A DNA stretch of 5,171 nucleotides, taken from IMG/VR virus record IMGVR_UViG_2690316278_000004; one strand, 5' to 3'. The notes under the pieces are model-generated. The model saw only the letters and a list, made by a program, of their open reading frames with translations, did no database searches and was not told the origin of the DNA. Both the position numbers and the translations under genes were made by a program. Positions 1 to 5,149 of the stretch are shown here, piece after piece. Position 1 is the first letter of the stretch, and each line of letters starts with the position of its first letter. The stretch is from a virus (lineage: Duplodnaviria > Heunggongvirae > Uroviricota > Caudoviricetes).

Positions 1-11
1 TCAACTGATCC

Positions 12-1170
12 TTAACTGATCGGCATTACACCACCGGGACGCGGATTCATATCTTCCAGGTCGCGGCAGTCATTGGAAGAGTAAATTCCCCAGTTGATCC
101 CGGTGGCGTAGGCTTCAAAACGGGACTTCATATCCCCGCGCAGTAACGCCCCGGCGTTAAATTTGGCGTAATAAACGCCCTGCTTACTTTTTCGTACCAG
201 TCCGGTGTTGATCCGCTGTTCGATGCGGGTCAGATACGGCACCAGTGAATAGTTGATAAATCCCAGCCCCAGCTCTTCGATATTGTTGAAGGTGGCGCGA
301 TCGGTGTTCTGCACCATGTGCAACGGCACCCGGAACAGACGACAGATTTCTTCCAGCTGAAACTTGCGGGTTTCCAGGAACTGACTGTCCTCGGCGTTCA
401 GCGCCATCGACTTCCAGTCCAGCCCCATTTCCAGAATCATCGGGCGGTGAGCATTGCCAAGCCCCGTGTGACACTCCTCAAAATCTTTCTTCAGACGCTC
501 GTAAGCATCCGGCGTGAGCTTTTGTTCCGTACGCAACACACCGGATGTCACCGCACCATTACTAAACAACCTGGCACCGTGCTCCTCGGTTGCCGCTGCC
601 AGTGAAATGGCCTCACGCGCATACGCAATGGGATTCAGCCCGACAAGTCCATCCAGCGTCAGGGTGCGCACATGCCAGATTTCATTCTGGGTCAACACAT
701 CCACGGAACCATCCGGAAACGTCACCTGATAAACCGGCTGCCACTGGCTGTTCAGCTTCGGTTCCACACAGCCCGGATCTATCGGAAGAAGCTCCACCAC
801 TTCTCCCAGTGCCTTTACCTTGTAGGCGTAAAAATTCCCCCGTAGACACAGGCAGACAATAACCAGCTCCCAGAATTCCTGCGGTGTCATGTAGCCATTA
901 GGTTTTGCCGAAACCAACTTATGCAGTCGTTCATCCACCGCCCGTGTTTTCAGGGTACCGCTGATTTTGTAGAGACTGCAGGGCAGCATACCAACAGACT
1001 CTGCCAGCACCCTGACGCAAGAATAGACCGCCGTCAGGCGCATGGCCCGCTGGCTACTGATCCGCTTTCCGGTATAGGTGTCGTATGACAGCCCGATAGC
1101 ATCAGCAGTTCTGCTGGCGTGGTCACCGGCACATCGCTTTTTCGTTGAAATAATCCCGAAAAGAACACTA
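12..1170 (-). CDS. Phage portal protein, HK97 family; 5' end (start codon) lies in or beyond the N gap, stop TAA at 12-14
   Basis: 385 aa of uninterrupted minus-strand ORF after the gap (SVLFGIISTKKR...NPRPGGVMPIS). Overall similarity by recall to HK97-type portals, length about right (~400 aa), and position immediately downstream of the large terminase. The track's 450-aa ORF (12..1364) reads through the N run and is an artefact upstream of 1170. Confidence 0.85.
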
Positions 1171-1277
1171 NNNNNNNNNNNNNNNNNNNNNNNNNNNNNN
1201 NNNNNNNNNNNNNNNNNNNNNNNNNNNNNNNNNNNNNNNNNNNNNNNNNNNNNNNNNNNNNNNNNNNNNNNNNNNNN
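1171..1277. other. Run of 107 N (assembly gap or masked sequence)
   Basis: Directly visible. Length is not a multiple of 3, so any reading frame carried across it is unreliable. Confidence 0.99.
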
Positions 1278-1455
1278 TACCTCCGCCGACAGACTGCCGT
1301 GTACGGTCGAGATATCGCGCCACCAGCCACGACCAGAACAGGCACAGCGCCCCGGCAACAACAAAACCCGCCGGGGGATAAATCAGCCAGGCACCATACG
1401 CCAGCAAAAGCGCACCCAGCACGCCCACCAGAGGCGCGAGAATCAGCATGATCAT
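1278..1455 (-). CDS. Small hypothetical membrane protein with two predicted TM helices; 3' end runs into the N gap, so true length is unknown (59 aa visible)
   Basis: ATG at 1455-1453 preceded by TGAGGT about 6 nt upstream and only 11 nt after the large terminase stop. Visible translation [59 protein letters not shown] is two hydrophobic stretches followed by a basic tail. CTG/GCG-rich codon usage matches the neighbouring genes. No family recognised. Confidence 0.5.
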
Positions 1456-1466
1456 AATTACCTCAG

Positions 1467-3200
1467 TTAAAGCGAGCGGATCCCGTAGGACTCAATGTGG
1501 TCAGACAGCGTGTCTTCTTTCTCGTACAGCATGGCTCTGCCAACCGCCATAATCAGCGCAACTGCACCATCGATTTTGTTTTCCGCCTGCTCTTTGACGG
1601 GTTTCACCACATCATCGTTACCCGGCATGTTTTTGCCGACCACGTTGCCGATACACCAGGTCATGATGGGATTGCCGTCATGATGAAAACGTCCCGATTC
1701 AATCGCTGCTTCCAGCTCTTTCATCGGATCGGACATATTGGTGAAGTTCTGGACGATAGTGACGGGATTCAGGTCTTCATCAGCAAGGTCATGTGACAAC
1801 CCGGTCGCCCCGAAGGGGTCGATGGGTGACTCACTGACCGGGCTGATTTTGTTCGCCGCTTTGGCCTCCTCGAGGATGTAGCGATAATCCACCTCCGCAC
1901 CATCGGTAACGGTCAGAACGCCCATTTCCACCCATTTCTGAAAGCGTTCGGCTGTCCGTCGATCTTCATTTTTCTCGACGCTGTACACCGTGTCATACGG
2001 TACCCAGAAACGCGGGGCCACACTGTAGTAATGCGTTTTACCGTCAATCTCGCGGGTATAAAGTCGCGCCATGCTGTTCATATCCAGCTTACGCGCCAGG
2101 TCAAAGGCCAGAATGCACGGCTGCCCCTCGAACTGCTCAAGGGTCAGTGATTTATCCTCGCAGCTCTGCCAGCTCACCAAGTTGAAATACGCCGAACGCG
2201 CCGACACCCAGATATTGAGGTGTTTTGTTTTAAAGACGTTTGCCAGACGGGCGTTATTTTTCGCACGCTGCTGCTGACTTAACAAAAATTCGCGATAAAC
2301 CGACACGCCAATATTTGGATTGGCTTTTTCCAGCACCTGCGGGCCGGTCCAGTCGTCACCTTCATCAACGGTATAGATGATCCCGAACAGTTCATCGTTA
2401 GGCACCGAGCCGTTGAGCATCTCGATGACTTCCCGCCGCTTGTCGTAGCACGGCCCCTCAATGTTGTACCCGGCGGTGGTGATGGCCCACATCAGTGGCT
2501 GACGTCGCGCCCCCATCCCGGTAAGCATTGTGGTATAAAGCGCATCGGTGGCATGCTCGTGATATTCATCAACCACGGCACAGTGGGGTGATGAACCATC
2601 ACCTGGGTTGCCGATCAGCGGTTCAAACCGCGCGCCATCCTCCGGACGGTTCATGTTTGAGGCGTTAACCTCAATCCCGAACGCTTCCGTCAGCATGGGT
2701 GTGCGTTTACACATCAGTCGCGCCGGGCGAAAGACTTCCCACGCCTGTTTCTCTGTCGTGGCACCGGAATACACTTCCGCGCCAAACTCGTTATCACAGG
2801 CAAAACAATACAGGGCAACACCGGCAGAGATTGCTGATTTGCCGTTCTTACGGGGGATTTCGGTGTACACCTCCCGGAAGCGGCGCAACCGGGTGCCTTT
2901 ATTGACCCAGCCAAACGCACAGCAGATCACAAATAGCTGCCACGGCTCCAGCGTGATGGGCATCCGTTTGAATGCCCACTCCCCCTTGGTGTGCGGCAAC
3001 AGCTGAATAAATTTCGCGGCCCGTTCAGCCAGGTCCTTGTCGAAGCGGTAACGAAACGACTTACTTTTTTCCGCCATCAGGTCATCAAGATGGCGCTGGC
3101 AGGCCTGAATCACAAACTGGCAGGCAACAATCTTTCCGCGCACGACATCCCGGGCATACTGATTTGCAGCATTTACGTTGGGGTAAGATTTCCGGCTCAT
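1467..3200 (-). CDS. Phage terminase large subunit (ATPase plus nuclease)
   Basis: 577-aa ORF. Walker A-like IPRKNGKS at aa 115-122 (nt 2835-2858), Walker B-like AVVDEYHE, and C-terminal acidic nuclease-like motifs ([18 protein letters not shown]). Start ATG at 3200-3198 overlaps the upstream gene's stop as ATGA. Overall similarity by recall to HK97-type large terminases. Confidence 0.93.
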
Positions 3201-3691
3201 GATTCGATAATTTTCAGAAACGGGTTAGTGGCTTTCTTCTGCCCCGCCAGGCCAATCAGACGCTGGCGGCTGCTGGGGTCGAGTCCGAGCATTGCCCCCG
3301 TGCTGCTCATCTCGGACTCCTGTTCTTTTTTGGCGGTCAGCTCCGGATTTTTGACCCTGCCGCCCATTGCACCGGTGATGGTGTTGCCCTGTATGGCAAT
3401 ATTTTTCACGGCACGTCGCCAGAACTCATAGGCCACGCACCACCGCTCAAGTACCGCCAGGTCAGTCACGCACAGCAGGCCCTGACCGCAGAGTTCTTTG
3501 GTTGTCAGTTGCCACATGATCGTGGCGAGAGGGAGATCTTCTTCAGCGAACCACTCTGGTGGCTCAACACCTTTGATGGGCGTAAAAACAGGTTCATCTT
3601 TGTTCAGGGCTCGCTTGCCGGGGTTTCCGGCCAGCGCCTTGCGCGCCGTTGGCTTGGGGCGACGCCCGGAACGCCCCGCCGTTCCAGCCAT
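3197..3691 (-). CDS. Phage terminase small subunit, P27 family
   Basis: N-terminus [34 protein letters not shown] is characteristic of P27-family small terminases as I recall them. ATG at 3691-3689 is preceded by AGGAG with 8-nt spacing. The track's longer start at 3700 is a GTG with no better RBS. Stop TGA at 3199-3197 overlaps the large terminase start. Confidence 0.85.
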
Positions 3692-3700
3692 ATGCGGCAC

Positions 3701-3812: not shown

Positions 3813-4163
3813 TCACCGGATTCGTTCGCGCGCTGTTTTCGCTTTATGGCAGGGCCAGCACAGACTCTGCAGGTTGCTGTCTGCGTCTGTTCCGCCATGC
3901 GCTTTCGGGATGATGTGGTCGACGGTTTTCGCCTCGCTCACCACACCGACACGCAGACACAACTGACACAGACCTTTATCGCGCTTCAGAATACGGGCAC
4001 GAATCACCGTCCATTTTGAGCCATAGCCACGCTGGTGGCGGCTCAGTCCGCGCTGGTGCTGCACCCAGCCTTCACCGCGATGTTTATCGCAGTAACCCGA
4101 ACTGTCTGTGGTTGTACCTGCACATCCACGCTTACGGCAGGCACGTGGGATTAGTGATGGCAT
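3813..4163 (-). CDS. HNH endonuclease, phage packaging-associated type
   Basis: 116-aa ORF with an HNH core (DHIIPKAHGGTDADSNLQSLCWPCHKAKT) and Cys pairs (CRKRGC, CQLC, CWPCH) consistent with a zinc-binding HNH fold. ATG at 4163-4161 with GAGGT about 6 nt upstream. Sits immediately upstream of the terminase genes. Confidence 0.9.
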   Translation of the reverse strand: MPSLIPRACRKRGCAGTTTDSSGYCDKHRGEGWVQHQRGLSRHQRGYGSKWTVIRARILKRDKGLCQLCLRVGVVSEAKTVDHIIPKAHGGTDADSNLQSLCWPCHKAKTARERIR

Positions 4164-4205: not shown

Positions 4206-4655
4206 CTACTTAATGCACTGAGTGCGGATATACTCCTGTGCCCCTTCCAGTTGCATCTGCATCGTCATCAGCCGCTCTCTGAGGGTGAAATAATCCCGTT
4301 CAGCGGTGTCTGCCAGTCGGGGGCTGGTTGCATTATCCACGCCGGAGGCGGTGGTGGCTTCACGCACTGACTGACAGACTGCTTTGATGTGCAACCGACG
4401 ACGACCAGCGGCAACATCAGCGCGCAGAGTTTCATTTTCAGCTTTCGCATCAGCTAACTCCTTCGTGTATTTAGCATCGAGTGCATNCTGCTGCATGTCA
4501 GTAATGGTTGCGTTCGCCAGCTTCAGTTCTCTTGCGTTTTTGTCGCGCTGCTCTTTGTAGGTAATGGCGTTATCACGGTAATGATTAACAGCCCATGACA
4601 GGCGGACGATGATGCAGATAACCAGAGCGGAGATAATCGCGGTGACTCTGCTCAT
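4206..4655 (-). CDS. Rz: Rz i-spanin (inner-membrane spanin), lambda type
   Basis: Translation from [17 protein letters not shown]... to ...RTQCIK is near-identical by recall to phage lambda Rz, with an N-terminal TM helix and coiled-coil-like periplasmic part; about 4 aa shorter than lambda Rz. True start is probably the ATG at 4655-4653 (the track's extra MGAA comes from an upstream GTG). One ambiguous base (n at 4487) gives one X residue. Confidence 0.9.
4268..4450 (-). CDS. Rz1: Rz1 o-spanin (outer-membrane lipoprotein), embedded in the +1 frame of Rz
   Basis: 60-aa [27 protein letters not shown]...PPPPP... with a lipobox-like LVVVGC and a proline-rich mature part. Near-identical by recall to lambda Rz1. 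Lies wholly inside Rz in a different frame. Confidence 0.85.
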   Translation of the reverse strand: MRKLKMKLCALMLPLVVVGCTSKQSVSQCVKPPPPPAWIMQPAPDWQTPLNGIISPSESG

Positions 4656-5149
4656 TGCTGCCCCCACAAACAGACTTCACGCTCAATCTCACGACGGGTC
4701 ATCAGCCCTTTCCATTGCTTACCGCCAGCATATGTCCAGCGACGTAGCTGGTCACATGCGCCTTTGATATCGCCCTGGTTTATTTTGCGAAGAAGCGTCG
4801 ATGTTCTGAAATTGCCAGCGCCCACGTTGTAAACGAACGAGTAAAGAGCGCCGCGCGTTGTTTCCGGTATATCGACTTTGATGTACGGGTTAATTTGTCT
4901 GGCGACAGTGGCAAGGTCTTTATTCAGGAGAGCTTTGCATTCTGCTTCGGTATACGTTTTACCAGGCATGATGTCTTTTCCGGTGTGTCCGTGACATACA
5001 GTCCATACACCAATGATATCTTTGTATGGTATGTAGCTGACACCTTCCAGACCATCGTTACCACCTGGGCCAGTGATTAACACAGATGCTATAGCAACAG
5101 CCCCGCCACCAATAGCAACTGCAACAGCCTTGCGTAATGATGGCGACAT
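4652..5149 (-). CDS. R: SAR endolysin (T4-lysozyme-like muramidase, phage 21 R type)
   Basis: 165-aa ORF. N-terminal Gly/Ala-rich weakly hydrophobic segment [20 protein letters not shown] (aa 8-27, nt about 5066-5128) typical of a signal-anchor-release domain. Putative catalytic E35, D44 and T50 in [18 protein letters not shown]. Near-identical by recall to the phage 21 endolysin. GAGAGGTG RBS 6-7 nt upstream of the ATG at 5149-5147. Confidence 0.9.

Follow-up and report, generated by a model that had tools for sequence, protein, structure and literature searches.

ymfR, a conserved membrane-hairpin gene between the large terminase and portal genes of a decaying prophage: identity and possible role

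The window analyzed here is a 5,171-nucleotide stretch of tailed-phage DNA in which a small open reading frame separates the gene for the large terminase (TerL) from that for the portal. This reading frame is almost certainly ymfR, a short gene that begins just after the TerL stop and whose own stop overlaps the portal start. The gene is not a novelty but an already known, long-annotated and conserved phage gene, and its product is an inner-membrane helical hairpin composed of a first transmembrane helix, a conserved turn, a second transmembrane helix and a short, variable cytoplasmic tail. Judged from profile searches, YmfR represents a large phage family of proteins of about 50-65 aa encoded between TerL and an HK97-family portal, and the family is fixed directly upstream of the portal in hundreds of lineages of phages that infect Beta- and Gammaproteobacteria. 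The part of the window that the initial annotation had called its least explained element is a named and widespread phage gene, and its hidden end amounts to one codon and a stop. As to function, we tentatively favor a role as a membrane accessory linked to the portal or head module, a reading that draws on analogy with T4 and to which we give somewhat less than even confidence.

Identity of the gene and its junction with the portal

The protein read from 1278-1455 on the minus strand shares 58 of its 60 residues with YmfR (b1150) of the Escherichia coli K-12 prophage e14, the two substitutions (RQ versus QS) lying in the variable tail, and its residues 1-55 are matched by the PHROG 502 "membrane protein" profile with an E value of 2.8e-28. 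RefSeq names the gene "protein YmfR", and in K-12 MG1655 it is b1150 of the cryptic prophage e14, annotated as "IPR020297 domain-containing protein YmfR". A megablast search found the small gene together with its junction in 1604 of 5426 complete E. coli genomes, annotated "ymfR: protein YmfR". Phage counterparts include L37 of phiP27 ("putative integral membrane protein"), Sb3 of ST64B and a product labelled "membrane protein" in both SfI and SfII; SfIV and PY54 carry the gene without an annotation. The phiP27, ST64B, SfI and SfII proteins and that of Salmonella phage 118970_sal3 (PHROG 502) are orthologues, with 94-100% identity over the aligned part, and the L37/Sb3 group shows the same order of TerS (P27)-TerL-YmfR-portal-protease-capsid with no difference of substance. 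The initial annotation had listed the reading frame as unassigned, which no longer holds, as it is already YmfR in RefSeq and K-12, falls under IPR020297 and PHROG 502, and is called an integral membrane protein in phiP27. Scans of the 60-aa protein against Pfam, NCBIfam and PADLOC returned nothing, or sub-threshold matches to unrelated membrane families. The literature on ymfR, on small membrane proteins near the terminase or portal, and on phiP27 and ST64B yielded gene lists and one expression table, and no functional study was found there.

Several GenBank records name ymfR "head-tail joining protein W", which appears to be a positional mislabel. The soluble protein gpW of phage lambda, encoded between terminase A and portal B, is a positional analogue with a length similar to that of YmfR, and this shared position and length probably explain the label. 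A role for YmfR as a gpW head-tail joining protein was rejected, as gpW is not among the Pfam matches at E values up to 1 and residues 1-46 of YmfR are hydrophobic throughout. Genes of the YmfR family are often unannotated or mislabelled as gpW, and a simple annotation rule may be offered: a two-helix reading frame of 50-65 aa that carries the YGAW..PAGFIVGG motif and overlaps the portal start is a YmfR-family gene.

All genes in the window lie on the minus strand, and their coordinates are collected in Table 1. The ymfR start codon ATG occupies 1455-1453, and an intergenic spacer of 11 nt separates the gene from the TerL stop TAA at 1469-1467. The TAACTGAGGTAATT-ATG context is common to the close E. 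coli, Shigella and Salmonella-type relatives and is variant in more distant enterobacterial homologues. K-12 e14 shares with the window the upstream spacer, the ribosome binding site and the TAGTG junction, which in e14 leads into the portal remnant beeE.

Table 1. Features of the 5,171-nucleotide window, listed from the 5' end of the minus strand
Feature	Position	Strand	Remarks
Phage lysozyme	4652-5149	-	
Rz, with embedded Rz1	4206-4667; Rz1 4268-4450	-	
HNH endonuclease	3813-4163	-	
Small terminase, P27-type	3197-3700	-	Terminase_4
Large terminase TerL, 577 aa	1467-3200	-	TerL_ATPase and TerL_nuclease domains; upstream neighbor of ymfR
ymfR Shine-Dalgarno GAGG	1461-1464	-	5 nt 5' of the ATG; read from sequence
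ymfR, visible part	1278-1455	-	Codons 1-59 and first base of codon 60; read from sequence
Portal Shine-Dalgarno GGAGG	1280-1284	-	Inside ymfR codons 57-59
Run of 107 N	1171-1277		Flanks only 2 nt apart (AA, completing codon 60 as Lys) in identical and related sequences
ymfR stop TAG	1168-1170	-	Shares its G with the ancestral portal start GTG (1168-1166); TAGTG, 1-nt overlap
HK97-family portal, pseudogene here	31-1168	-	PF04860; downstream partner of ymfR
IS4 element end, inserted in portal 3' end	1-30		Two or three junction bases uncertain

The 3' end of ymfR is hidden by the run of N, and it can be read from four public IMG/VR contigs (L017-L020) that show 100% identity to the window throughout TerL, ymfR and the portal and carry AA in place of the N run. 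Read in this way, the full gene has 60 codons and its predicted product ends in ...GGGK. The length including the stop is 180-186 nt in all enterobacterial homologues except L012, a frameshifted copy from Shigella. Scaffold spacing is the most likely origin of the 107 N; an in-frame insertion of 105 nt beneath them was considered as well, is present in none of the homologues and is the less likely reading for this particular assembly. The initial annotation had named, as signs against its reading, termination of the frame after a few more codons combined with no conservation in related phages: the frame does end after one more codon, but it is strongly conserved among relatives. One further sequence returned by the genome scan as a ymfR homologue, L016, was a false positive, being a fragment of an ABC transporter gene. 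An ungapped comparison of L017-L020 with the window further upstream showed mismatches.

In relatives, the portal start annotated by RefSeq sits at the G of the ymfR TAG, and the resulting TAGTG overlap of 1 nt implies that translation of ymfR and the portal is coupled. The Shine-Dalgarno sequence of the portal is encoded in the 3' end of ymfR, which explains the invariant C-terminal Gly-Gly of the protein. The earlier description of a real, well-signalled reading frame between TerL and the portal holds, given the GAGG, the 11-nt spacer, the purifying selection and the hundreds of homologues described below. That the frame might instead be no gene at all, arising by chance or as a shadow of the portal or terminase frames, could be argued from its shortness, its high G+C (0.62) and the end hidden by N. 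The shadow reading, which the initial annotation had raised with respect to the portal, fails because the portal is overlapped by one base only and TerL not at all, and chance would not account for purifying selection or for hundreds of homologues of fixed length and fixed position. Together, the dN/dS values, a family of 416 clusters and synteny with the portal in 88 of 90 contigs refute a chance or shadow frame, to which we attach next to no probability.

The prophage in the window is decaying, and ymfR itself is intact. Relative to phiP27, e14 and the related sequence L001, the portal gene carries a 1-nt deletion between 1107 and 1106, such that the frame opened by the GTG stops after 44 codons and the body matched by Pfam lies in another frame. 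Homology to intact portals ends at position 31, so that about the last 34 codons after ...NPRPGG are lost, and identical contigs continue from base 1 of the window into sequence 100% identical to the insG transposase region of IS4. L017-L020 show 100% identity to the window in the first 150 nt of the portal, where the deletion lies, as well as in the portal body, and as the deletion and the IS4 junction are common to these contigs, the two lesions are unlikely to be errors of a single assembly. The e14 prophage has decayed differently: its TerL survives as a chimeric remnant and its portal as a fragment, whereas the window has an intact TerL and a portal that carries both the frameshift and the IS4 insertion.

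The junction also stands out in comparisons with more distant phages. Even where TerL is only 74-77% identical to that of the window, ymfR retains 98-99% nucleotide identity and the first 150 nt of the portal 91-92%, and mid-portal sequence is about 77% identical in most of these phages. High identity of ymfR and the portal start beside divergent TerL and mid-portal sequence indicates that the packaging and head modules have been joined by recombination at this junction. The assembly may have broken at the N gap because co-resident prophages share this island.

A membrane hairpin under purifying selection

The two hydrophobic helices and basic tail noted by the initial annotation are recovered both by hydropathy and by structure prediction. 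Residues 2-23 have a mean Kyte-Doolittle value of 2.19 and residues 29-46 one of 1.99, the turn between them reads LIYPPAG, and the C-terminal tail has a mean hydropathy of -1.46 and a net charge of +3. AlphaFold2, run with an alignment of 25 homologues, models YmfR as a helical hairpin (H2-25 and H27-57) with a mean pLDDT of 74.6. Basic residues just after the second transmembrane helix suggest, by the positive-inside rule, that both termini face the cytoplasm (N-in/C-in). Fold searches of BFVD and the PDB with the AlphaFold2 hairpin gave no match at E <= 0.001, a two-helix hairpin being too simple for fold search. The top-ranked BFVD matches were small uncharacterised viral proteins.

A first search returned 166 homologues of about 60 aa, and a profile search of 1.84 billion cluster representatives (clustered at 50% identity) matched 416 clusters at E <= 0.001. 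The best 150 of these 416 matches have a median length of 61 aa, with 128 of them in the range of 45-80 aa. Homologue alignments contain three invariant glycines and a YGAW..PAG core, and core and glycines alike are found in a sample of the family clusters. For codons 1-47, pairwise dN/dS among six enterobacterial homologues is 0.07-0.32, with dS of 0.5-1.7 and synonymous sites nearly saturated; the tail codons 48-58 evolve near-neutrally (pN ~ pS). These substitution patterns indicate that the membrane hairpin is under purifying selection and that nothing in the tail is constrained except the portal Shine-Dalgarno sequence embedded there.

Size and predicted topology, with two helices, a basic tail and an orientation drawn from the positive-inside rule, would also fit a holin-like or lysis-timing protein, as class II holins and pinholins have two transmembrane segments, an N-in/C-in arrangement and a charged C-terminal tail. 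The N-terminus of the endolysin in the window is Gly/Ala-rich and hydrophobic, and may mark a signal-anchor-release lysozyme of the type that works with pinholins. A lysis role is nevertheless very improbable. The gene lies outside the lysis cassette, with lysozyme, Rz and Rz1 located 3 kb upstream beyond the HNH, TerS and TerL genes, and family members are always found at the portal and never beside an endolysin. Further, the Met1/Met3 pair is not conserved, as homologues start with MILM, MFLI or MILT, so that there is no dual-start motif, and no holin family is among the Pfam matches.

Position beside the portal across phages

Conservation of position was assessed in 90 diverse viral contigs that had been fetched by similarity to two distant small-protein queries alone, with the portal counts resting on six portal queries. 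A portal homologue starts directly downstream of the small reading frame in 88 of the 90 contigs. At least 67 have the end of a TerL homologue directly upstream, and in 10 more the TerL match overlaps an over-extended call of the small frame. After removal of redundancy 68 loci remain: in 56 of them the stop of the small gene and the start of the portal overlap (TGATG in 38, ATGA in 18), in 9 more the two lie within 15 nt of each other, and in 58 a Shine-Dalgarno-like motif is found no more than 16 nt before the portal start. The same arrangement is present in Burkholderia phi644-2 (gp3), Vibrio VaK, PhiPS02, K312, Yersinia PY54 and an Alcaligenaceae prophage, and it is kept in Ralstonia YO151_1 and Klebsiella Kp4873-4 despite a TerL only 34-36% identical to that of the window. 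Some family loci carry a TerL of the HK97 type (46-52% identity).

Phage phi644-2 gp3 and the unnamed 53-67-aa reading frames of Ralstonia YO151_1, Kp4873-4, PhiPS02 and K312 resemble YmfR in position, size and two-helix pattern, with only weak sequence similarity; matches through the family profile make it likely that they are homologous to YmfR. All five overlap the TerL stop, and the Ralstonia, Kp4873-4, PhiPS02 and K312 frames overlap the portal start as well, whereas phi644-2 gp3 ends 4 nt before the portal. Related prophages do, then, carry a reading frame at the TerL-portal junction, as the initial annotation had proposed to check, and in this lineage the small gene is the rule rather than an insertion. 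The canonical HK97-type order cited there, in which the portal directly follows TerL, is correct for HK97 itself, where the two genes overlap. No such small gene was found at the TerL-portal site of HK97, Caulobacter TMCBR2 or Serratia BUCT805. The corresponding site in Moraxella Mcat23 holds two reading frames that, by eye, resemble fragments of a DNA methyltransferase, and no gene of the YmfR type.

Across 16 enterobacterial triples, which are not independent of one another, YmfR follows the portal in degree of identity (Spearman 0.91) but does not follow TerL (0.36). The 88 of 90 synteny, the overlaps and this correlation together point to the portal as the constant partner of ymfR.

These features bear on the suggestion in the initial annotation that the gene could be a moron, such as a superinfection-exclusion or membrane-targeting factor. 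A moron forms a transcription unit by itself, with a promoter and a terminator of its own, and its GC content deviates from that of the flanking genes (PMC3594210). No promoter-like site was found within about 500 nt upstream of ymfR and no terminator on the minus strand, and the GC3 of ymfR is 0.68 against 0.65 for TerL and TerS; its higher total G+C arises because the protein is rich in Gly, Ala, Leu and Pro. The gene is spaced by 11 nt from TerL and by -1 nt from the portal, and its distribution is lineage-wide rather than sporadic, since it is present in relatives down to 34% TerL identity and missing only from some distant lineages. Lacking transcription signals of its own and a GC3 shift, ymfR is a gene fixed in the late operon rather than a classic moron, and a stop codon that overlaps the portal start likewise speaks against the moron proposal. 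The initial annotation had offered a packaging accessory protein as its other idea, and a putative packaging or head accessory function is the better of the two.

Candidate roles for YmfR

In the role that we tentatively favor, YmfR would be made late in infection and would insert into the inner membrane with both termini inside. With the portal Shine-Dalgarno sequence in the last ymfR codons and the stop overlapping the start, ribosomes finishing YmfR would re-initiate on the portal start, and the protein would serve the portal or head module as an accessory in the membrane and would not be a lysogenic-conversion moron. One form of this proposal takes its cue from T4, in which gene 40 is not adjacent to gene 20. 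The T4 portal initiator gp20 is membrane-bound and depends on its chaperone gp40 (PMC9958956), and if the favored explanation holds, YmfR would resemble gp40 in serving as a membrane factor for a portal initiator, a likeness of functional analogy only. YmfR might then localize or chaperone the first step of portal-ring or procapsid initiation at the inner membrane. The more specific proposal that the family is an overlooked head-morphogenesis component, whose hairpin would seed or anchor the start of portal-ring or procapsid assembly at the inner membrane, is rather unlikely on present evidence. Were it true, membrane-initiated head assembly, documented so far for T4, would be common in temperate HK97-like phages of Proteobacteria.

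Several observations count against a link to the portal. The conserved part of YmfR is the membrane hairpin with its periplasmic-side turn, and the cytoplasmic tail, the sole part able to reach a cytoplasmic portal, is almost neutral. HK97, Caulobacter TMCBR2, Serratia BUCT805 and Moraxella Mcat23 build heads without such a gene. Also, ymfR is intact where the portal is dead, both in K-12 e14, which retains only the beeE fragment, and in this window; this could reflect a role independent of the portal, or merely a small mutational target. Co-inheritance with the portal could likewise come from adjacency and coupling alone, with no functional link.

Some of these observations lend weight to an envelope-directed effector, which would act on a target in the host inner membrane or periplasm, for example by blocking DNA entry of superinfecting phages, and for which the site before the portal would be a stable genomic address. 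The best-conserved residues face the membrane and the periplasmic turn rather than the cytoplasm, PHROG 502 belongs to the category "moron, auxiliary metabolic gene and host takeover", and the gene persists intact in decayed prophages with a dead portal. There is also a precedent in HK97 gp15, a YebO-like superinfection exclusion moron that blocks such DNA entry and, like YmfR, is a small inner-membrane protein encoded inside an operon of virion structure genes (PMC3594210). However, gp15 is an independent transcription unit of different GC content, is expressed from the prophage and occurs sporadically (PMC3594210), whereas ymfR has no promoter or terminator of its own, shows no GC3 shift and is found lineage-wide. 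Without such signals, and sharing bases with the portal start and, in many phages, with the TerL stop as well, ymfR is unlikely to be expressed from a repressed prophage. Synteny with the portal in 88 of 90 contigs, from phages of Beta- and Gammaproteobacteria, is unlike the distribution of a moron, and no PADLOC defense model matches YmfR (0 families in PADLOC-DB at E values up to 1). We therefore consider an effector role unlikely, although it is the strongest competitor of the membrane accessory reading.

The coupling itself raises the question of whether the reading frame matters mainly in cis. In such a device the small frame would set a low rate of portal translation by termination-reinitiation, with little function of the protein in trans; its co-translational insertion may, in addition, bring the polycistronic mRNA, and hence the nascent portal, to the membrane. 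The stop/start overlap in 56 of 68 loci and the portal Shine-Dalgarno sequence within the last ymfR codons are in keeping with this arrangement, as is a tail that is free to vary except for the Gly-Gly encoding that sequence, and in HK97 an overlap of this kind couples TerL and the portal directly. Generic hydrophobicity would suffice for a cis device, yet a specific motif and three invariant glycines are kept across the 416 clusters, and dN/dS is well below 1. We thus regard a mainly cis-acting role as improbable, and continue to prefer, with the reserve expressed above, a protein that serves the portal or head module from the membrane. An Rfam scan of the whole window gave only a chance mir-200 match far below the gathering score, and no known RNA element at the junction. 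As for expression, the only datum found is that e14 ymfR was induced along with other listed e14 genes in an SOS-inducing condition (PMC10012262).

A mosaic joint and a disrupted portal gene

Comparison of the ymfR-portal region (window 1020-1455) with its counterparts in related phages (comparison loci L002 and L021-L096) shows uneven conservation. Nucleotide identity is 98-99% across the ymfR gene, which encodes a small two-helix membrane protein between TerL and the HK97-family portal, and 91-92% over the opening 150 nt of the portal gene. In contrast, TerL of the same phages is only 74-77% identical to that of the window, and in most of them the middle of the portal gene is at ~77%. High identity of ymfR and the portal start between diverged TerL and mid-portal sequences marks this region as a mosaic recombination joint between the packaging module and the head module. 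Such a joint may also be the reason that the assembly broke at exactly this site.

The window portal gene is a pseudogene. A 1-nt deletion lies near its start, and the reading frame that opens at the ancestral GTG start codon (1168-1166) stops after 44 codons, while the portal body matching Pfam is found in a different frame. A T>C change near the deletion abolishes a stop that relatives carry in the Pfam-matching frame. The 3' end of the gene is interrupted by the terminal part of an IS4 element, and beyond the window start, identical contigs run into DNA that matches the insG transposase region of IS4 at 100%. This IS4-portal junction was found in none of the 5426 complete E. coli genomes searched.

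Lysis genes and an RNA match in the window

The window also encodes Rz, an Rz1-like lipoprotein and a lysozyme. The hydrophobic, Gly/Ala-rich N-terminus of the lysozyme is reminiscent, from its composition, of a signal-anchor-release endolysin, and its partner holin would be expected past the window end. An Rfam match to mir-200 within TerL (1602-1676, minus strand; E 0.047), whose 25 bits fall far short of the gathering score of 86, was rejected as a chance match.

Other features of the window
Feature	Position	Strand	Remarks
IS4 element, terminal part	1-30		inserted in portal 3' end, after ...NPRPGG
1-nt deletion in portal gene	1106-1107	minus	codon ~22; relative to phiP27, K-12 e14 and L001
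Rz	4206-4667	minus	one N inside gene, at 4487
Rz1-like lipoprotein ORF	4268-4450	minus	nested in Rz, other frame
Lysozyme (PF00959)	4652-5149	minus	hydrophobic Gly/Ala-rich N-terminus

Overlooked and probably misnamed ymfR copies

Copies of ymfR have been missed in existing records. In Yersinia phage PY54 (L097, NC_005069), a clear YmfR homologue (MKILIITGFLIGLIGAGLVSYGAWLWTPAAGFIVAGVICLFWSW...) at 2300-2491 lacks annotation and occupies the 190-nt "intergenic" gap from TerL to portal; the SfIV copy (KC814930, NC_022749) likewise lacks any feature. Four GenBank hits, ON470584 (H23), ON470603 (H34), ON470580 (H39) and PQ793804 (H28), name the YmfR orthologue "head-tail joining protein W", which is probably a positional mislabel inherited from lambda. 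YmfR is a hydrophobic hairpin and has no match to the gpW family.

Unusual loci among the relatives

Shigella flexneri SFBU0723 (CP182557, L012) carries a frameshifted ymfR at ~3500-3680, in the second prophage copy of the genome, with the N-terminal half out of frame. TerL-ymfR-portal DNA was also found under three non-Escherichia labels: a "Bacillota bacterium" MAG (L004, JAEWTL010000102), Edwardsiella hoshinae NBRC 105699 (L006) and the 1764-bp "Enterococcus phage Efm 3-10" (H38, OR844959). Identity of 95-98% to E. coli/Shigella prophage in each suggests contamination or a wrong organism label. At the TerL-portal junction of Moraxella phage Mcat23 (L102, 4273-5035), two ORFs replace the YmfR-type gene; identified by eye only, these read like DNA methyltransferase fragments, with a DPPY motif.
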